IMG/VR virus record: IMGVR_UViG_3300049573_000247
Span: 1-64,000 of that record
Length of the DNA stretch: 64,000 bases
Origin: a virus
Lineage: Duplodnaviria; Caudoviricetes
Strand: one strand, 5' to 3'
The notes under the pieces are model-generated. The model was given only the letters and a program-made list of their open reading frames with translations, was not told the origin of the DNA and searched no databases. Made by a program: the position numbers and the translations under genes. Below, one piece after another: positions 3,721 through 46,527 of this stretch (positions are counted from its first letter, which is position 1; each line of letters starts with the position of its first letter).

Positions 3721-4245
3721 TCAGGATTCCGTGCTGGCCGCTTCAGCGGCTTCCAGCTCGGCGATCTTAGCCTTGGCGAGCTTCTCCTGCTCGACCATGG
3801 CATCCCACGCGCTGAGCAGCTTCTCGGCGTCCAGCGGCTTCGGCTCGTAAGTGCGCAGGTTGAACCCCGACAGGATCACTGGGCCGAACACCGGTCGGCC
3901 GTACTGGAACGGGGTGCGCGTCTCGCTCGCGATGAGCATGGCCGCGACCGCGTTGAACCGCTCGGGGTCGGCGCGGCGGTCCTCAGCGGTGTTGCAGAAG
4001 TAGGAGTGGCCGCTATGGGAGAACCGGAACACGGTGTCGCAGTCGCCGCCGGTGACCTTGTCGAAGAACGCGTACCAGTCCCGGTGGTCATCACCCAGGC
4101 CGATGGTGTCGCAGTTGTAGATCGTGACGTGGCGCTCCAGGTCCAGGACCATGATGGGGCGCTCGTTGGTCGCGAGGGTGGCGCGGAAGAGGGGGTCGTC
4201 GATGCTGACCTGGCGGGCCGGTTCGATCTCGGGAGTGTCAGCCAT
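3721..4245 (-). CDS. hypothetical protein, DUF3846-like
   Basis: FNAVAAML...PVFGPVILSG pattern; start coupled to the helicase stop. Confidence 0.55.
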   Translation of the reverse strand: MADTPEIEPARQVSIDDPLFRATLATNERPIMVLDLERHVTIYNCDTIGLGDDHRDWYAFFDKVTGGDCDTVFRFSHSGHSYFCNTAEDRRADPERFNAVAAMLIASETRTPFQYGRPVFGPVILSGFNLRTYEPKPLDAEKLLSAWDAMVEQEKLAKAKIAELEAAEAASTES

Positions 4246-5758
4246 GGGTGCCTGCTTTCTTGAGTTCACGTGGGTACCAGCGTCGCGGCTGGTCATCGGT
4301 CGCCTCGCCGGTGAGGTAGTCGTCGATCCAGGCGATGGCCTCATCATCGAGGTGCTGCTGGGCGCGGGTGACCGCGACGTAGCACAGCTGCAGCTCAGCG
4401 GGGTCCATCGGACGGAGCTGTCCTTCGCCGTCCAGTGACGGTTCGCGGAAGTCGGCGCCGATCTTGACCCGAGGGTACTGCAGGCCCTTGGCGCTGTGCC
4501 CGGTCATCACCGCCAGGTCGACCGGTCCCTTGTCGGTGTCTTTGAACTGATTGGCGATCTTCAGCAGTTGGGCTGCGCCCCATTTCTCGACCAGGCGCAC
4601 GAACACGGCCAGCTCTCCGGCGCTGGGGTCGGTCTCGATGTAGTGAAGTACCTCCCGCCAGGACGCGAACGTCGCCAGCTCCCGGTAGTCGCAGTGGAGA
4701 CCGGCCTGCAGTTGCAGCGCGGCCTTGCACATGTCCTTGATGTTGTCGGACACGCGCTTGGCCATGCCGACGCGCCGCCCGGCCTCCAGTGCTTCGTGGG
4801 CGGCCTCGACCGCACCGGCGTTGGTTCGGCACAAGACCACGTCGGGGTCGGCCAGGGGACCGACCGTCCCGGGTTCGCCTCGCCCCCTCAGGGGCAGCTC
4901 GCAGTCGAGCGCGGCCAGCCACCGGTTCGCACGATCGGCGATCTGGGGGCCGAACCGGAAGCTCTCGGTTAGGTGCAGCCGCTGCTGGGCAGGCCACTTG
5001 GTGAGTGCGTCGATCGAGTTCCGCCACTGGTAGAGCGCCTGATTGGAGTCGCCGACGGCGATGAGCTGGCAGTCTTGGCGCAGGAGCACGTCGAGGGTGA
5101 GCGCGTCGATGTCCTGGGCCTCGTCGAGCATGATGAAGTTGGCCTTCAGCCGGGGCTTTTTCAAGGCCCAGATCTTCCGGTAGTGGTCGTGCGAGCATTC
5201 GGCGCGGTCGGAGTGGGGGTCCTGCAGATCGTTCCACATCGCTTTCGCGTACGGCAGCACGTGGGTTTTCAGGGCCGCCATGGCGTCGCCGTCGATGCCC
5301 TCGACGGGGGCCACATGCCAGGCCGTCAGCTCCCGGTCGGCCGAGCGGGCGAAGCGCTGCACCGCGAGCTTGGCGAGGACGGCCACGCCGACGGAGGTGA
5401 TGGTGCGGTCCGGGGCCGGGGCGAACGGCTTCGTGCCGAACGCGTCGGCCAGTTGTGTACCGGTGCGCCCGGCGTCGCGCCCCGACCAGCGGCGCCGGTA
5501 GTAGCGGCCCACCTCCCAGGCCATGCTGTGGCTGGTGTGGCATTCGACAGTGCCGGGGAAGCGGTCTTTGGCATCGGCCCGGTTGTTCTTCCCGAACGCG
5601 ATGTAGAAGCCCATCTTCAGGCGCCGTTCCTTGGCCTCGGCGCCCAGCCGCAGGGTCTCGGTCTTCCCGGTTCCGGCCAGGGCCTGCACGGCGATGTTGT
5701 CGCCTGCCTCGATCGCGGTGACGATCTGGTCCTGCTCATCGGTGGGCGTGAAGCTCAT
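4238..5758 (-). CDS. UvrD/Rep-like SF1 helicase
   Basis: ALAGTGKT Walker A, LDEAQD, VGDSNQALY, LTESFRFG, TGHSAKGLQY, YVAVTRA. Confidence 0.92.
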   Translation of the reverse strand: MSFTPTDEQDQIVTAIEAGDNIAVQALAGTGKTETLRLGAEAKERRLKMGFYIAFGKNNRADAKDRFPGTVECHTSHSMAWEVGRYYRRRWSGRDAGRTGTQLADAFGTKPFAPAPDRTITSVGVAVLAKLAVQRFARSADRELTAWHVAPVEGIDGDAMAALKTHVLPYAKAMWNDLQDPHSDRAECSHDHYRKIWALKKPRLKANFIMLDEAQDIDALTLDVLLRQDCQLIAVGDSNQALYQWRNSIDALTKWPAQQRLHLTESFRFGPQIADRANRWLAALDCELPLRGRGEPGTVGPLADPDVVLCRTNAGAVEAAHEALEAGRRVGMAKRVSDNIKDMCKAALQLQAGLHCDYRELATFASWREVLHYIETDPSAGELAVFVRLVEKWGAAQLLKIANQFKDTDKGPVDLAVMTGHSAKGLQYPRVKIGADFREPSLDGEGQLRPMDPAELQLCYVAVTRAQQHLDDEAIAWIDDYLTGEATDDQPRRWYPRELKKAGTHG

Positions 5759-6179
5759 CGGCTCCCTTTCTGCGGGCGGCGCGGCGCATGGACTGCTGCT
5801 GGCGCTGCAGTCGGTAGCGCAGCACCTGCAAGTCGGTGTAGGCCAGTTGGAGTCGGTGTGTCGAGGGCGCCCACGCGCACCAGCGTTCAGCTCGCAGGTG
5901 CACGTGGGTGGCGTCATGACGCGCGGTCAGGCCCGCTCGGATGCCGAACAGGTACCCGTTCTCGGGGTCGAACTGCCACACGGTGCAGAACCAGCGGGTG
6001 GCGTCGCGCAGGACGGCCAAGATGGGGGCGACCTCGTCGCGTTCGATCGACCAGGCGCCTGCGGTGCGGGTGAAGCGGTGCTCGGGCGTGCCGTCGGGCC
6101 CCAGGGGCGCGTGCAGAATGAAACTGGCGGGGCGCATCTCCGCGCTCCAGCCGCCCATATCCGGCTTCGGGTCGATCAT
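5736..6179 (-). CDS. hypothetical protein
   Basis: ORF with AAGGA RBS and GC3-biased codons. Confidence 0.55.
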   Translation of the reverse strand: MIDPKPDMGGWSAEMRPASFILHAPLGPDGTPEHRFTRTAGAWSIERDEVAPILAVLRDATRWFCTVWQFDPENGYLFGIRAGLTARHDATHVHLRAERWCAWAPSTHRLQLAYTDLQVLRYRLQRQQQSMRRAARRKGADELHAHR

Positions 6180-6300: not shown

Positions 6301-6338
6301 AAGGAAAGGGCCTCGGAGCACCCCAACCTCCGAGGCCC
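6301..6338 (-). terminator. intrinsic terminator of the tRNA cluster
   Basis: 11-bp stem GGGCCTCGGAG/CTCCGAGGCCC followed by TTTCCTT, just after tRNA-Pro. Confidence 0.75.
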
Positions 6339-6341
6339 ATG

Positions 6342-6415
6342 TCGGGCTGACAGGATTCGAACCTGCGACCCCCCGCTCCCAAAGCGGGTGCGCTACCAAA
6401 CTGCGCCACAGCCCG
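6342..6415 (-). tRNA. tRNA-Pro(UGG)
   Basis: Full cloverleaf CGGGCTG...CAGCCCG-A; anticodon loop TT-TGG-GA; T-loop TTCGAAT. Confidence 0.95.
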
Positions 6416-6457
6416 GCCCGGCGCCAGCGTGCGGGCGCTGGCGCCGGAGTCTGCACG

Positions 6458-6530
6458 AGCGGCAACCGGGGATCGAACCCGAGACCTTCTGGTTGGAGGC
6501 CAGACGCTCTACCAGCTGAGCTACTGCCGC
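6458..6530 (-). tRNA. tRNA-Gly(UCC), C33 variant
   Basis: Cloverleaf GCGGCAG...TTGCCGC-U73; anticodon arm TCTGG-CCTCCAA-CCAGA. Confidence 0.88.
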
Positions 6531-6531
6531 G

Positions 6532-6604
6532 TGCCCAAGGCAGGATTCGAACCTGCAACCTTCCGGTCCGGAACCGGATGCTCTGTCCGTTGAGCTACCT
6601 GGGC
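6532..6604 (-). tRNA. tRNA-Arg(CCG)
   Basis: Cloverleaf GCCCAGG...CTTGGGC-A; loop TT-CCG-GA. Confidence 0.93.
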
Positions 6605-6605
6605 G

Positions 6606-6676
6606 TGGGCGGGCTTTGATCCGACTCGAACGGTAGGGGGCCCGCTTGACCCCTGTCCGGGTTTTTCACCGGCCTC
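6606..6676 (-). ncRNA. degenerate tRNA-like RNA ending in CCA
   Basis: tRNA-sized slot between Leu and Arg genes; CCG-TTCGAGT-CGG T-arm; GCGGGC/GCCCGC stem then CCA. Confidence 0.5.
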
Positions 6677-6677
6677 G

Positions 6678-6751
6678 TACCCAGGGTGGGGGTCGAACCC
6701 ACACTGTGCGGTGTTTGAAGCCGCTGCCTCTGCCGATTGGGCTACCCGGGC
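6678..6751 (-). tRNA. tRNA-Leu(CAA), short variable arm
   Basis: Leu-type D arm GCCCAATCGGCAGAGGC; loop TT-CAA-AC; T-arm GTGGG-TTCGACC-CCCAC; A73. Confidence 0.88.
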
Positions 6752-6796
6752 GTACTGTCTTGCTGTAGTCGTCACCTTACGCGATGCGTGGTGGTG

Positions 6797-6868
6797 TGCT
6801 CAGGGAGGGATTTGAACCCCCAACCCTCGGTATGTGACACCGATGCGCTGCCGTTGCGCCACCCGAGC
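6797..6868 (-). tRNA. tRNA-Val(CAC)
   Basis: Cloverleaf GCTCGGG...CCTGAGC-A; arm TCGGT-GTCACAT-ACCGA. Confidence 0.85.
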
Positions 6869-6935: not shown

Positions 6936-6968
6936 TGGTGGGGCGCAACGGTTCGAATGTTGCGCCCC
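6936..6968 (-). ncRNA. tRNA minihelix-like hairpin A ending ACCA
   Basis: GGGGCGCAAC-ATTCGAACC-GTTGCGCCCC-ACCA. Confidence 0.6.
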
Positions 6969-7010
6969 AGATGTGCGGAAAGGCAAACTCACTGTAGCAG
7001 CAGGAGGGTG

Positions 7011-7292
7011 CTACAGCCCCTGCTGCCGCTGCCGCTGCTGCTGCGCGATGAGCGCGGTGCTCGCGGCCGTGTTCTTCAGGTTGATGTCCTGATTGGACTC
7101 GCGAACCAGGCGGTCCATGCGGAACATGTCGATGAACCACAGCATGAACAGTCCGCCGAACGAGAGGCTGTAGCCGACCCCGCGCGGCGTGTTGCCCAGG
7201 TAGTAGTGGTGGCCGCCGACCCAGCCGAGGGTCCAGTACCACAGGTAGGCGCGACCGAGGGTCTTGTTCTGCTGGTAACCGTGGGGGGGCAT
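7011..7292 (-). CDS. TM2-domain membrane protein
   Basis: AYLWYWTLGWVGGHHYYLG...SFGGLFMLWFIDMFRMDRLVRESN; GAAGGAG RBS. Confidence 0.85.
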   Translation of the reverse strand: MPPHGYQQNKTLGRAYLWYWTLGWVGGHHYYLGNTPRGVGYSLSFGGLFMLWFIDMFRMDRLVRESNQDINLKNTAASTALIAQQQRQRQQGL

Positions 7293-7426
7293 GAGAGCTC
7301 CTTCAGAGGGGCGCGCGAGCGCGCGGTGAGATTGTTTCACCCATGGTACGACCGAGGGCCGCCAGCGCGGTGCTGGCGCCCCTCAATGGATGCCTGGGTC
7401 GACGCGGGCGGTGCTCGCGGTCGTAG

Positions 7427-7837
7427 TGGTGGGGCGCAGCGAATCCCTTGCCGCGCCCCACCCTTTGAGTCGACGCCCATGATCAAGGCGTTTCCCATCG
7501 TGCTCCCGGAGGAACACGAGCGTAAGGCCTGGAGGCAGCGATTCGACCCGCTGCCCCCAGGGGGAGAGCACTCTGTTGCCTCAGAGCGATCTCCATGTGC
7601 TCGCGCCAGACGGAGGCTGCGTAGCGGAGAGAAAAGTGTGTGGTGGGGCGCAGCGTTCCAATCGCTGCGCCCCGGTGCCGCCGTCAGGAGCACGTTCTTG
7701 TCGGGACGCGGCGGTTGCAGACGCCGCGTCCCTTGTGCGGGTGATGCCCCAGATCAAGGTGTGGTGCCACTGCGGGGCGCGGCAGGCTTCGACTACCGCG
7801 CCCCGATTCCCATGTGGACACCCATGATCAAGGCATC
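7427..7837 (-). repeat. array of related minihelix-like hairpins B-F with interspersed UGAUC(A) elements
   Basis: Hairpins at 7427-7459, 7530-7558, 7641-7673, 7699-7732, 7773-7805; CCTTGATC(A)TGGG motif at about 7473-7492, 7743-7761, 7817-7837. Confidence 0.75.
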
Positions 7838-7868
7838 GGACCCCGCGTCCCGCGAGAGACGCAAGTAG

Positions 7869-7948
7869 TGGTGCGCCTGTGAAGAGACCGCTTCAATCCC
7901 GTGAACTGGCTTTCTTTGCACAACGGGGGTCGTGCGTGCGCCAGGCGC
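7869..7948 (-). ncRNA. 80-nt tRNA-like RNA with 7-bp acceptor stem and ACCA
   Basis: GCGCCTG...CAGGCGC-ACCA with stacked TGAAG/CTTCA arm and GCACGAC/GTTGTGC arm. Confidence 0.55.
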
Positions 7949-7960
7949 TGCGCAGCACCG

Positions 7961-7968
7961 ACTGTACC
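7961..7968 (-). promoter_or_regulatory. putative -10 element upstream of the structured-RNA array
   Basis: GG-TACAGT 12 nt upstream of the tRNA-like element. Confidence 0.4.
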
Positions 7969-8230
7969 CCATCCGCCGCAGGCCGAGCGAGGAACCTTCA
8001 CACGTCGTGTCCCCGGCGGCGCCGGGCCACATCGTCCAGGCGCGCAGCGATGCGCTCCCCGGGTGCGTGCGCGCCCTGATGGGCGTCCTGGCGCAGGCAT
8101 CCTTGGGGGTAGCGGCCCTGGAAGGCGCGGGCCGTGAGTGCGCCGCAGCGGCCCGGTGCGGCGACGGTGCTGCGTCCCCGGGGGACGGTCTCGGTGAACT
8201 CCTCGATGTCGATCCGCTCCAGCCACGGCA

Positions 8231-9496: not shown

Positions 9497-11770
9497 TTAG
9501 CGGTGTGCCGCGACCCTTTCGGCCAGACCGGTGTACCGCTTCGCCGCGCTCACCGTTTTCACGGCCTTGGCGAGGGCCTTCGGGGAACCCACGAGCACCA
9601 CCCGCGACTGCGCCCGCGTGATGGCCGTGTAGATCAGGTTTCGCACCAGCATCTGGTACGACTGCATCGTCACAGGGATGACCACGCACGGGTACTGCGA
9701 CCCTTGCGATTTGTGGATGGTCACCGCGTACGCCAGCGCCAGCTCGCGGATCTCGCTGGCGGCGTAGGGGATCGTGTGGCCTTCATCGGTCTCGATGACG
9801 ACGGCCTCGTCGCCGCCTTGGGGGTTGACGCTCACCACCCGCGCCGGGGTGCCGTTGAAGACACCGGTGGGGGAGCCCCACTCGTCGGGGCCCTTCTCGT
9901 AGTTGTTCTTGACGACCATGACGCGGTCGCCAGGGCGGTAGCGGATCGCCTCCTCGCCGATGCTGGCGTCGTACTCGATGCCCTGGGAGGGGTTGAGTTC
10001 CTGCTGGAGGCGGGTGTTGAGCGCGACCACACCGCAGGAACCCTTGCGTTGGGGGGCCAGCACCTGGATGTCGGCGGCCGTGATGCCCTCTGGCCCGAAC
10101 TTCGCCGGGATGCGCTTGCAGACCATGTCCACGACGCCTTCGGCGGCGGCGTCGGCGTCGGTGACCGACCAGAAATGCAGGTCGGGCCAGCCTTTGAGCT
10201 GCGGGTAGGTTCCGGCGTTGACCTGGTGGGCGACCTGGACGATGCCCGAGGCCGCCTTCTGCCGGAAGATCTGCGTCAACGCGGTCGTGCGGGCGATACC
10301 GGAGGTGATGAGGTCGCGCAGCACACTGCCGGGGCCGACCGAGGGCAGCTGGTCGATGTCGCCGACCAGCAGCAGGCGCGCGCCGCGCTTGATCGCCCGG
10401 GTCAGGTACCGCGCCAGCGAGACGTCGAGCATCGACGATTCATCGCACACCACCAGGTCAGCGCTCAGCGGGTCCTCCGGGCCCACGCGGGCCGCGCCGT
10501 TCTCGCCGGTGCCCAGGCCGATCAGGCGGTGCACCGTCGCCGCCGGGGCGCCGTCGGCCAGTTCGGACATGCGCTTGGCGGCGCGCCCGGTGGGAGCGCA
10601 CAGCTCCACACGCCACCGGCAGATCGCGGCGGCCAGCGCCACCGTGGCCACGGTGTGGGATTTGCCCACGCCGGGGCCGCCGGTGAGAACTGTCAGCGGC
10701 TGCTCCAGGACCGCGCGCACGGCCTGCTCCTGCTCGGCCGTGAGGCCGCGTTCGGCCAGGAGCGCCTCGATCTGCGCCTGCTGCGTGGGCGATGGGGGGG
10801 CCACGGTCGCTTCGGCCAGGCGCCGCAGGTGCTGGGCCAGGTCGGATTCGAGGTAGTGCATGTGGCGGGTGTAGGCCCGCTCCTCCTCCACGACTACGCG
10901 CTCTTCGTCGACGGCCAAGGCCACGGCCTGCGCGCACTTGTCGGGGCGTACGCCCAGCAGCCGCACGGCCTGCTCGATGAGGACCGCGATCGGCAGGTAG
11001 CAGTGCCCGTCGGTCTGCGCGTTCTCCAGCGTGTACGCCAGGCCTGCGCTCACGCGCCGGGGGTCGCTGCGGTCCCAGCCCAGGGCCCCCATGGCGATCT
11101 TGTCGCACGTGGTGAACCCGATGCCTTTGGCTTTGGTGAGTGCGTACGGGTTGGTTCTGATCGTGGCGGCGCCGTCGGCGCCGAACGCCTCCCAGATCCC
11201 CGGCGCCAGCGACGTGGACGCGCCTACTTCCATCAACGCCAGCGCGATCGCGTGCTGCTTGGCCAAGCGCGTCCAGCCTTCGGCGATCACTTCCAGCTTC
11301 TTGGGGCTGATCCCCTTGATCTCGACCAGGCGCTCGATCTCCTCATCGAGGATGCGCAGCGTATCGTCGCCGAAGCGCTCCACGATCCGCCGGGCGATCG
11401 AGGGGCCGATGCCCTTGATACGGCCCTTGGCGAGGTACTCCTCAGCCTGGGCCGCGTCGGCGGGCGGCTGCGGGGCGTAGCTGGTGAACTTGAACTGGCG
11501 TCCCCAGTGCTTGTCGTTGACCCACTCGCCGTGGAGGGCGACCATGTCGCCCTCGTGCGGGTCCAGCATCGGCCCGACGGCCTTCTCGATCTGCCCGTCG
11601 GGGCAGCGGATGGACAGGACTGACCAGCCCGAGTCGGCCGAGGTGAACGTGACACGCTCGACCACGGCCCGCAGCGGCCCCTCGGTGTCCTCCTCGCCCG
11701 TCGAGGCCACGCGTCGATCGGCGGTGAACAGCGTGGGCTGGGACTCGACAGTGAACTCAAGGGCGGTCAT
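9497..11770 (-). CDS. recD2: RecD2/TraA-family SF1B helicase
   Basis: N-terminal OB fold (WGRQF), HhH GIKGIG, NPY, TGGPGVGKS, DESSM, VGDIDQLPSVGPG, TIHKSQGSQY, YTAITRA. Confidence 0.95.
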   Translation of the reverse strand: MTALEFTVESQPTLFTADRRVASTGEEDTEGPLRAVVERVTFTSADSGWSVLSIRCPDGQIEKAVGPMLDPHEGDMVALHGEWVNDKHWGRQFKFTSYAPQPPADAAQAEEYLAKGRIKGIGPSIARRIVERFGDDTLRILDEEIERLVEIKGISPKKLEVIAEGWTRLAKQHAIALALMEVGASTSLAPGIWEAFGADGAATIRTNPYALTKAKGIGFTTCDKIAMGALGWDRSDPRRVSAGLAYTLENAQTDGHCYLPIAVLIEQAVRLLGVRPDKCAQAVALAVDEERVVVEEERAYTRHMHYLESDLAQHLRRLAEATVAPPSPTQQAQIEALLAERGLTAEQEQAVRAVLEQPLTVLTGGPGVGKSHTVATVALAAAICRWRVELCAPTGRAAKRMSELADGAPAATVHRLIGLGTGENGAARVGPEDPLSADLVVCDESSMLDVSLARYLTRAIKRGARLLLVGDIDQLPSVGPGSVLRDLITSGIARTTALTQIFRQKAASGIVQVAHQVNAGTYPQLKGWPDLHFWSVTDADAAAEGVVDMVCKRIPAKFGPEGITAADIQVLAPQRKGSCGVVALNTRLQQELNPSQGIEYDASIGEEAIRYRPGDRVMVVKNNYEKGPDEWGSPTGVFNGTPARVVSVNPQGGDEAVVIETDEGHTIPYAASEIRELALAYAVTIHKSQGSQYPCVVIPVTMQSYQMLVRNLIYTAITRAQSRVVLVGSPKALAKAVKTVSAAKRYTGLAERVAAHR

Positions 11771-12308
11771 GGGCGGCCTCGGTTTCGAGCCACGGATGGG
11801 CGTCCTCGTCGCGCCACACCTCGATGAGCGGGTCCCCGAACGGCTGCCCGTTGTTGTAGACCGCGCCATCGGGCGTGGCCGGTTCGAGGTGCCAGACAGT
11901 CCAGTCCACCCCGTTCCCGAACGAGATCGTCGCGTCCTCGGGAGCGACCAGGATCTGGGTCACCGACGGTGCCCGACCGTCAGGGAACAGCCGCTGCTGC
12001 AGCTCGTCGAGGATGGGGTGCAGCTCGCGGCGCATCTGCGGCTTAGGCTCGTAGGGCTTGGGCTCGGGCCAGTACGTCTCGCCGCCGCCGCGCTGCATGG
12101 CCATGAGGTTCTGCATCCGCTCCCAGACGGCCGGGTCGGCCTCGAACAGGCGCTGGGCGTCGCGGAACAGGCTCAGGCGGCGCACCTCCTGCTCCTGGCC
12201 GTTCACGGCCGGGAAGCTGGCGTTCACCTGCGAGGCGTCCACGGTCATCGACTGCAGCGATTCGTCCCGCGTGCCGTCGTCCAGCAGCGGCACCAGTTCT
12301 ACCAGCAT
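11757..12308 (-). CDS. hypothetical protein
   Basis: 183-aa ORF, AAGGAG RBS. Confidence 0.65.
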   Translation of the reverse strand: MLVELVPLLDDGTRDESLQSMTVDASQVNASFPAVNGQEQEVRRLSLFRDAQRLFEADPAVWERMQNLMAMQRGGGETYWPEPKPYEPKPQMRRELHPILDELQQRLFPDGRAPSVTQILVAPEDATISFGNGVDWTVWHLEPATPDGAVYNNGQPFGDPLIEVWRDEDAHPWLETEAAHDRP

Positions 12309-46451: not shown

Positions 46452-46527
46452 TCGACCGGCTCGACACGTGAACGCCGAGCCGGTCGTTCAATTCTGAACC
46501 ATATCGTGGCCTGTGGCCACAGCGCGG

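Follow-up and report, generated by a model that had tools for sequence, protein, structure and literature searches.

Positions 1 to 64,000 of the IMG/VR virus record IMGVR_UViG_3300049573_000247, the window of this study, contain on the minus strand an array of six related hairpins, designated A to F, at the head of a tRNA operon. The record is a single contig of 141,154 bp from an uncultured soil-type phage, has 65.6% GC and eight tRNAs, and was estimated by CheckV to be 99% complete. Between about 3 and 91 kb, nearly every likely gene is on the minus strand, and the GC content (66%) and the gene content suggest an actinobacterial host. The six hairpins had originally been predicted to be tRNA minihelices, that is, imitations of the acceptor and T stems of a tRNA with an NCCA tail, acting either as decoys for enzymes that attack tRNA 3′ ends (toxSAS, MenT-type, and GNAT toxins) or as punctuation for ribonuclease P (RNase P).

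Two relatives of this phage were available for comparison. Genome L007 (also designated G001; 142,477 bp, with direct terminal repeats) was found by a scan of viral contigs with the hairpin pattern, and genome L024 (also G002; 138,035 bp) was found by a scan of viral contigs with a second motif of the locus, motif M. Both are syntenic with the window and share 75 to 90% DNA identity with it over the aligned segments, and the CheckV completeness estimates for all three genomes are between 97 and 100%. Searches of viral contigs with a helicase protein, with an alignment of it, and with motif M, as well as a search of metagenome contigs with a 23-nt conserved block, yielded L007 and L024 only. 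No close phage or plasmid record was found in the GenBank phages and PLSDB, and a search for the host with a host-like phage protein gave no match in genome contigs. All comparisons rest on these three closely related genomes, with 14 hairpin copies.

On the minus strand, a leader of about 705 nt (7293-7997) with no plausible open reading frame (ORF) is located between the stop codon of the upstream gene and a gene for a TM2-domain protein. Behind the TM2 gene come hairpin A, five tRNA genes, and a U-tract terminator, the only one in the region. The features of the locus are as follows, in the direction of the minus strand.

8000-7998, minus strand: stop codon of the upstream gene; the leader begins beyond it
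7961-7966, minus strand: candidate −10 element TACAGT (TANNNT), 31 nt past the upstream stop codon; putative start of the leader transcript
7866-7956, minus strand: conserved multi-stem 5′ element of about 90 nt, about 95% identical in the three genomes (neighboring DNA, about 80%)
7842-7865, minus strand: hairpin H, 10 bp with three G·U pairs, loop UCGC; folding free energy (ΔG) −13.8 sense versus −8.3 antisense
7818-7836, minus strand: motif M1, small hairpin AUGCCU-UGAUCAU-GGGUGU; the GGGG core of F is 29 nt from the start of CCUUGAUC in M1
7770-7805, minus strand: hairpin F, 12 to 13 bp, loop UCGAAGC, tail GCAG
7744-7762, minus strand: motif M2, small hairpin ACACCU-UGAUCUG-GGGCAU, before E
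7699-7732, minus strand: hairpin E, 11 bp, GGGACGC/GCGUCCC, loop UCUGCAAC, tail GACA
7641-7673, minus strand: hairpin D, 11 bp, loop AUUGGAA, tail ACCA
7563-7594, minus strand: additional hairpin, 12 pairs and one mismatch, outside the GGGGCGC family
7528-7561, minus strand: hairpin C, 13 to 14 bp, loop GGUCGAAU; stem extends 3 bp past the originally predicted first base, G1
7498-7519, minus strand: additional hairpin, 9 bp, loop UCCG; ΔG −12.8 sense versus −8.5 antisense
7473-7491, minus strand: motif M3, small hairpin ACGCCU-UGAUCAU-GGGCGU, before B
7427-7462, minus strand: hairpin B, core of 10 bp plus three outer pairs GGU/ACC, tail ACCA
7339-7399, minus strand: long hairpin I, directly upstream of the TM2 ribosome-binding site; 3′ arm invariant in the three genomes
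7011-7292, minus strand: gene for a small membrane protein with a TM2 domain, 93 codons, ATG behind GAAGGAG (Pfam TM2, E value 2.3e-9; PHROG 8793)
6936-6969, minus strand: hairpin A, 10 to 11 bp, loop AUUCGAACC, tail ACCA
6341-6868, minus strand: tRNA cluster Val-Leu-Arg-Gly-Pro; none of the five genes encodes CCA
6417-6448, minus strand: hairpin G0, 13 bp, ending 2 nt before the 5′ end of tRNA-Pro; conserved in the three genomes
6306-6340, minus strand: canonical intrinsic terminator, hairpin plus UUUCCUUGU, directly after tRNA-Pro

A family of stable hairpins

The minus-strand sequence contains every one of the six hairpins as described, to the letter, with the coordinates of F being slightly different from those first given: its GGGG...CCCC core is located at 7804-7774 and its GCAG tail at 7773-7770. 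The hairpins fold with ΔG values of −21.7 (A), −30.8 (B), −28.9 (C), −25.7 (D), −25.4 (E), and −28.3 (F) kcal/mol and have z-scores between −5.0 and −6.7; none of 200 dinucleotide shuffles folded as well. The outer stem GGGGCGC/GCGCCCC is common to A, B, D, and F, hairpin E possesses the compensated variant GGGACGC/GCGUCCC, and C is a more diverged relative. A to F are one paralogous hairpin family.

They are not the sole hairpins of the locus. Others were found at 7842-7865, 7563-7594, 7498-7519, 7339-7399, and 6417-6448, and the leader is a string of at least 11 stable hairpins. As had been noted before, a U tract does not directly follow any of the hairpins A to F, and the U-rich run downstream of D begins only 9 nt behind the hairpin. 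An identity of A to F as intrinsic terminators, of which an immediate U tract is the feature, was rejected. A scan for terminator-like sites between 6200 and 8400 returned a single site, the one after tRNA-Pro.

Pairing and strand polarity

The stems vary in sequence and nevertheless keep their pairing, in agreement with the original prediction. In an alignment of the 14 copies with a core helix of 11 pairs, 95.4% of the 14 × 11 cells are paired, and both sides change in seven of the 11 pairs. The covariation score was 0.353 versus 0.216 ± 0.022 with shuffled partners, with none of 500 shuffles reaching 0.353, and registers slid against each other scored between 0.07 and 0.12. Compensatory changes were found, for instance, in the C ortholog of L007 (5278-5310), which carries two of them (U-A to C-G and A-U to G-C) next to a loop UUCGAAC, and in hairpin B of L007 (5181-5211), which reads GGGGUGC.../...GCACCCC with a change of C5-G to U-A and is followed by ACCC. 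The pairing of the hairpin family is under selection. Outside the family, the L007 copy (5248-5269) of the hairpin at 7498-7519 differs in four stem positions, all of them still paired, hairpin H displays C-G to U·G transitions in either direction when compared to L024, and the M2 copy of L024 keeps its pairing via two double changes.

The mismatches in B, C, and F are G·U on the minus strand versus A·C on the plus strand, so that the argument originally drawn from them for the strand holds. Over 24 leader hairpins of the three genomes, 26 G·U pairs on the sense (minus) strand stand against five on the antisense strand, and the mean ΔG is −22.6 kcal/mol sense versus −20.9 kcal/mol antisense (Wilcoxon P = 0.016 for 24 hairpins, the copies of which are not independent of each other). 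This bias in G·U pairs, together with the higher stability of the sense strand, places the structures in a single strand of minus polarity, and RNA is the simplest reading. To this extent, the original prediction of an RNA on the tRNA strand is supported.

Distribution and copy number of the family

Within the genome of 141,154 bp, the GGGGCGC family is confined to this locus according to a regular expression, a degenerate pattern, and a covariance model built from the 14 copies. The degenerate pattern and the covariance model found the family in L007 and L024 again at the corresponding locus only, and all family copies are located within 870 bp in each of the three genomes. The family is a single-locus element at the head of a tRNA operon and not dispersed in the manner of repetitive extragenic palindromic (REP) sequences, a possibility that had been raised with the original prediction.

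The content of the array differs between the genomes: F, E, D, C, B, and A in the window, a degenerate E, C, B, and A in L007, and F, E, a D/B hybrid, and A in L024, resulting in copy numbers of six, four, and four. Hairpin F has an ortholog at 978-1008 in L024 and is missing from the corresponding place in L007. Hairpin E has degenerated in L007 to nine pairs and one mismatch and contains a 2 × 2 internal loop in L024. Hairpin D is missing from L007, and L024 has a single D/B hybrid hairpin (1109-1138), followed by ACCC. The hairpin at the B position of L007 combines the inner stem and the loop of F with the flanks of B. These differences indicate that recombination between the repeats has swapped copies, fused some, and removed others.

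No Rfam family was matched by the hairpins. With Rfam 15 at gathering thresholds, only tRNAs passed in the window, and the best sub-threshold match at the locus with E values of up to 10 reached 26 bits versus a threshold of 60. The pattern GGGGCGC-N14-20-GCGCCCCACCA gave 23 matches in viral contigs, of which only the match in L007 is related, and the others are located away from tRNA clusters. In bacterial genomes, the same pattern occurs at at least 120 loci across many phyla, about half of them without a stem extension; among the matches listed, each bacterial genome has a single match, save two loci with a palindrome matching both strands. The unrelated viral and bacterial matches are thus scattered, in many cases form no hairpin, and have no link to tRNA genes, which speaks against the minihelix reading and indicates that the hairpin is neither a widespread element nor a host repeat.

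Other classes of repeats were considered and rejected. An array of clustered regularly interspaced short palindromic repeats (CRISPR) does not agree with copies that are 68 to 76% identical over 38 nt and have start-to-start spacings of 58 to 491 nt, and the best match in a search of CRISPR direct-repeat families had an E value of 3.1 and 17.6 bits versus a threshold of 35. Integron attC sites and ends of the IS200/IS605 type were dismissed on the basis of repeat identity, motifs, and distribution, and a dispersed repeat of the type of REP sequences or bacterial interspersed mosaic elements (BIMEs) was dismissed on repeat identity, motifs, and the single-locus distribution.

Comparison with a tRNA minihelix

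The minihelix reading is supported in part only: the stem lengths and the loops of A and L007-C come near those of a tRNA minihelix, but the NCCA tail and the tRNA model fail, and most copies have no T-loop. With stems of 10 to 14 bp and loops of 7 to 9 nt, the family overall is near the size of a minihelix. Exactly 12 bp plus 7 nt are present in F, in its L024 copy (L024-F), and in L007-B, whereas D has 11 bp plus 7 nt, E 11 bp plus 8 nt, A 10 to 11 bp plus 9 nt (11 plus 7 in L024), B 10 bp (13 bp with the outer pairs) plus 9 nt, and C 13 to 14 bp. A loop similar to a T-loop, UUCGAAC or UUCGACC, is found in hairpin A throughout the three genomes and also in L007-C, but no T-loop is present in B, D, or E of the window; the loops of F and L007-B are UCGAAGC and UCGAAAC. 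The G-C closing pair of a T arm occurs only in L024-A and L007-C, which possess the textbook T-arm sequence G-UUCGAAC-C.

Hairpin A deserves separate attention. It is the sole one of 123 strong hairpins in the genome with TTCRA in the loop, apart from its own antisense reading. The loop core UUCGA is invariant in the three genomes, and variation is limited to the position before the loop and to the equivalent of tRNA position 59. The stem of A is also conserved, with one change of A-U to G·U in L024, while its flanks diverge. Across the whole family, the pairs G1-G3/C70-C72 hardly vary, and 12 of 14 copies have a purine directly behind the stem, the exceptions being L024-F and L007-E. A U residue at position −1 is found in just 3 of the 14.

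The NCCA tail is not conserved. ACCA follows A, B, and D of the window and L007-A only, while ACCC is found after L007-B and after the D/B hybrid of L024, ACAA after L024-A, and GACA and GCAG after E and F, respectively. The ACCA sequences after A, B, and D are present as predicted, but three of the four bases in B are paired because the stem extends outward as GGU/ACC. Likewise, the predicted unpaired “discriminator A” of C is a paired base within a stem of 13 to 14 bp (CCUGGGGG.../...CCUCCAGG), which extends beyond G1 in the window and in L007, with a compensatory change. With ACC paired to GGU in B and three pairs past G1 in C, these two hairpins cannot present a free acceptor end as folded. 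The pair G3·U70 of C is not kept, and L007 has G-C next to an A·C mismatch instead.

The Rfam tRNA model RF00005 did not give any match between 6850 and 8250 even at E values of up to 10, with the five true tRNAs scoring 47 to 70 bits. A tRNA-shaped sequence GGGGCGC...UUCRA...GCGCCCC is present in 2 of 301 sampled Actinomycetes genomes, in both cases in a tRNA with a CAU anticodon. This count, from a sample and hence no proof, does not support a copied host acceptor stem, which mimicry of the synthetase type or of a particular isoacceptor would need. The genome of the window phage does not contain a gene for a CCA-adding enzyme, and RelA/SpoT or AbiEii/MenT-type genes were not found in any of the three phage genomes. 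Seven of the eight phage tRNAs do not have an encoded CCA either, so that a missing CCA alone is not decisive against tRNA mimics. Altogether, the tail, which is the defining feature, fails, and a T-loop is found in a minority of the copies.

Leader, motif M, and neighboring features

The candidate −10 element reads TACAGT in L007 and TAGAGT in L024. The consensus fold of the element at 7866-7956 is a closed multi-stem RNA with “CACCAC” paired in the closing stem, which means that its “ACCAC” is not a free tRNA-like tail, and the three sequences are too similar to each other to contain compensatory pairs. A coding potential of the leader was rejected: the short ORFs are all rich in Arg, Pro, and Ala and are broken by indels in the relatives, so that none of them looks coding.

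Motif M (CCUUGAUCAUGGG) occurs in three copies at the locus and nowhere else in the window, with 0.04 copies expected by chance. In the whole genome, no further site with up to one mismatch was found, and there are a few look-alikes with two mismatches in unrelated sequence. The motif folds into a weak 6-bp hairpin with a UGAUCAU loop. Since the loops UGAUCA (M) and UUCGAA (several large hairpins) are self-complementary, loop-loop (kissing) contacts among M and the large hairpins are conceivable.

Hairpin I has 20 uninterrupted pairs in L024 (1144-1188), while the window has a 33-nt insertion in the 5′ arm; the stem has the length of an RNase III substrate. The TM2 gene downstream is kept in both relatives. 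Hairpin A begins 42 nt past the TM2 stop codon, and tRNA-Val begins 71 nt past the stem of A. A gene for tRNA-Thr(CGU) is missing from the window phage, but both relatives carry one between tRNA-Gly and tRNA-Pro. Comparison of 6416-6456 (minus strand) of the window with L007 4138-4209 and L024 2095-2167 revealed a clean deletion with the adjoining hairpin intact. The idea that the hairpin between tRNA-Gly and tRNA-Pro is a remnant of the lost tRNA-Thr was rejected because this hairpin sits beside tRNA-Thr in both relatives. Elsewhere in the genome, a strong GC hairpin at 46453-46486 (minus strand) ends 1 nt before the 5′ end of tRNA-Lys. The hairpins abutting tRNA-Pro and tRNA-Lys would form the 3′ end of the upstream fragment after RNase P cleavage.

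The more distant neighbors of the array are two helicase genes, both on the minus strand: a UvrD-like gene (4238-5917, PHROG 1967) and a RecD2-like gene (9497-11869; AAA_30, HHH_RecD2, and OB_YrrC domains; PHROG 4412, “exonuclease V”). A second local family of hairpin repeats, UCCAUUUCCUG-loop-CAGGAAGUGG(A/G), with two copies within 70 nt, was noticed outside the window at 139,759-139,830 of the genome (minus strand), in a hairpin-dense stretch at 139.2 to 139.9 kb.

Model and alternative explanations

The reading that we prefer, with a probability of roughly 0.45, is that the hairpins are cis-acting processing and stability modules of one long structured leader transcript of the tRNA operon. 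Their likeness to a tRNA top half is only a loose one, which makes such modules likelier than true tRNA mimics. Transcription would start at the conserved TANNNT near 7966 and would read through all hairpins, since none of them has the U tract needed for termination. According to PMC3993855, mycobacterial RNA polymerase requires a U tract to terminate, which is relevant only if the host is actinobacterial, as its presumed assignment has it. The primary transcript would then be cut by RNase P and trimmed at the 3′ ends of the tRNAs. Endonucleases would cut the few single-stranded linkers richer in A and U, for instance, the UGAUCAU loops of M, and possibly the 20-bp stem of hairpin I. The GC-rich hairpins would serve as exonuclease barriers, which would define and stabilize the fragments of the leader, the mRNA of TM2, and the precursors of the tRNAs.

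That hairpins end 1 to 2 nt ahead of tRNA-Pro and tRNA-Lys points to the same logic at other sites of this phage. Redundancy of the modules would account for relatives that do without one copy or another, and the variable copy number, the D/B hybrid of L024, and the F-like hairpin at the B position of L007 fit redundant, modular elements. The tRNA-like look of some copies, with about 12 bp, a UUCGAAC loop, and a purine followed by CC, may be the result of a descent from the top half of a tRNA or may indicate auxiliary RNase P sites; it is not conserved and does not define the array. The variant of the original prediction with RNase P punctuation comes close to this explanation.

Several observations weigh against such a processing and stability leader. 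The promoter is a match to TANNNT only, and a promoter scan of the region did not find a sigma-70 consensus promoter. The covariation is partly paralogue history because it stems from only three close genomes with 75 to 90% identity, and the sequences may also be compatible with a function of single-stranded DNA. A role as stabilizer does not explain why the outer 7 bp are nearly invariant among paralogues with diverging inner stems, why 8 of 14 copies have the loop core UCGAA in common, or why changes in the loop of A are confined to positions that a T-loop leaves free. The nearly invariant outer stem, the recurrent UCGAA core, and the T-loop of A keep alive a model of true mimics of the tRNA top half. 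RNase P would cut at G1, followed by trimming and by the addition or retention of CCA, and the free imitations of an acceptor and T arm of about 30 to 36 nt would occupy enzymes or toxins, or else the hairpins would be RNase P punctuation. We regard this as unlikely, albeit far from negligible. Stems and loops of minihelix size with three copies of exactly 12 bp plus 7 nt, the UUCGAAC or UUCGACC loops of A in three genomes and of L007-C, the closing G-C pair in L024-A and L007-C, the sole TTCRA-type loop among the strong hairpins, the constant G1-G3/C70-C72 pairs with a purine behind the stem in most copies, the placement at the head of the tRNA operon, and the equally CCA-less phage tRNAs are all in agreement with mimics. 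They have to be balanced against an ACCA that becomes ACCC or ACAA in the relatives, the paired ACC of B, the stem of C with its 3 additional bp and compensatory change, the T-loop missing in D, E, and B of the window, the G3·U70 pair lost in L007, and the missing match to the tRNA model at E values of up to 10. Moreover, a GGGGCGC acceptor stem is found in tRNAs of 2 of the 301 sampled Actinomycetes genomes, no gene for a CCA-adding enzyme, RelA/SpoT, or an AbiEii/MenT-type protein is present in the phage genomes searched, U precedes the stem in 3 of the 14 copies only, and close relatives differ by the gain, loss, and fusion of single hairpins. In the most far-reaching version, the array would be a set of stand-alone tRNA top halves, cut to about 30 to 36 nt by RNase P and the 3′-end machinery of the host, supplied with CCA where it is not encoded, and soaking up host factors that act on the acceptor end during infection, such as defense toxins by which the CCA end is modified or blocked, while the phage tRNAs replace damaged host tRNAs. 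This version is more doubtful still; if it were true, the variable copy number would reflect a tuning of the dosage against different hosts.

The M hairpin, a linker of about 13 nt, and a large hairpin could also form a regulatory signal, similar to nut sites with boxA and boxB or to sites of factor-dependent pausing or termination, which would set the amount of transcription reaching the TM2 gene and the tRNAs. There are three such units with a fixed geometry, 27 to 29 nt from CCUUGAUC to the stem, M is unique to the locus, and a leader ahead of a tRNA operon is a place where bacterial antitermination systems act. However, a U tract is missing, M is not present before D, C, and A, relatives have lost units with no evident replacement, M is unlike the boxA consensus of Escherichia coli and lambda when compared by eye, and no candidate antiterminator protein was identified, all of which makes this explanation plainly improbable. 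A function at the level of DNA, either as strand-specific single-stranded hairpins or cruciforms for replication (priming or an origin) or as palindromic protein-binding sites, would suit a gene-free gap between the UvrD-like and the RecD2-like helicase genes, the conserved half-sites GGGGCGC/GCGCCCC, the clustering of the repeats in a noncoding region, and the fact that single-stranded DNA also tolerates G·T pairs. This is a very improbable function, nevertheless: the inner stem positions covary, which is needless for a duplex binding site, gene orientation does not switch at the locus, the coarse profiles do not reveal a turn in the cumulative GC skew, and the hairpins share the polarity of transcription, forming one series with RNA-type hairpins such as H with its three G·U pairs and with the tRNAs. 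Just as little weight can be given to a functionless expansion of palindromes by slippage or recombination in a nonessential spacer, with the hairpins as a by-product of their origin from inverted repeats. The speed at which copies come, go, and fuse between genomes sharing 75 to 90% identity over aligned segments and the palindromic hexamers in the loops (TTCGAA and TGATCA), as expected of former perfect palindromes, would follow from it, but compensatory changes and the G·U bias of the sense strand indicate selection on pairing, the stem of A is almost unchanged in three genomes despite diverging flanks, and the palindromes did not spread to other intergenic regions.

Comparison with known systems

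Synthetic acceptor-TΨC minihelices and hairpin models are substrates of RNase P, the CCA-adding enzyme, and some synthetases. The hairpins of the array share with them a continuous GC-rich helix of about 11 to 13 bp, a loop of 7 to 9 nt, G1-G3:C70-C72 followed by a purine and sometimes CCA, and the UUCGAAC loop similar to a T-loop in A and L007-C; minihelices are discussed in PMC9976931, and RNase P measures the stack of the T stem-loop on the acceptor stem (PMC4919913). The array is, unlike these molecules, natural, its stems have no fixed length of 12 bp, most copies are devoid of a T-loop, and NCCA is unconserved and partly paired.

The species 1 and 2 RNAs of phage T4 (rnaC/rnaD) and the stable RNAs of phage T5 are small stable RNAs of unexplained function that are cotranscribed with phage tRNA genes. 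They are likewise structured RNAs other than tRNAs in the transcription unit of a phage tRNA cluster, presumably matured by the tRNA-processing enzymes of the host. However, they are single RNAs of about 100 to 140 nt with tRNA-like ends, and the array, in a genome similar to those of actinophages, is composed of many hairpins of 30 to 35 nt in a leader that precedes a gene for a protein. The Rfam searches of the window and the locus did not indicate a sequence relation to the T4 and T5 RNAs.

The REP and BIME palindromes of enterobacteria stabilize the 3′ ends of mRNAs against 3′ exonucleases and are present in hundreds of copies dispersed on the chromosome. The palindromes of the array are similarly GC rich, imperfect, and free of U tracts, they form a small cluster, and their copy number varies by recombination, with transcription being predicted in this case. 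They differ from REP in being confined to a single phage locus, and none of the host genomes among the matches listed has a matching repeat family.

Shapes that recruit RNase P or RNase Z for cuts at defined places are used as processing signals in mitochondrial tRNA punctuation, by the t-elements of plant mitochondria, by the MALAT1 mascRNA, in the 4.5S RNA precursor, and in the C4 RNA of phages P1 and P7. Partial tRNA shapes embedded in a longer transcript, predicted in the case of the array, are a common property of both. Those signals keep the features required by the enzymes, but tail and T-loop of the array are inconsistent and its cleavage is putative.

In the nut sites of lambda and the antiterminators of rrn leaders, a boxA is followed by a boxB hairpin (PMC2724277). 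The locus resembles these sites in having a two-part unit, M and then a hairpin at a fixed distance, which is repeated three times in the leader of a stable-RNA operon. It is unlike the nut sites in that no boxA consensus was recognized by eye, the hairpins have 11 to 13 bp instead of 5 bp plus a pentaloop, and half of them do not have the first element.

A literature search for phage-encoded arrays of natural minihelices or for decoys of tRNA ends in phages did not find any paper on them, and a search for minihelices and phages gave general tRNA papers only. The locus does not belong to the minihelices and hairpin substrates of RNase P, the stable RNAs of T4 and T5, REP, tRNA-like signals, or nut sites. 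The array is a real, undescribed, lineage-specific family of RNA hairpins, with a processing and stability leader as its likeliest reading. If the hairpins only stabilize and process, the locus would be a clean example of a large GC-rich phage that builds a long structured tRNA leader. If some copies are released as mimics of a tRNA end, they would be natural counterparts of the laboratory minihelix and would offer a testable route by which a phage interferes with enzymes and defense toxins that read the acceptor end of tRNAs.

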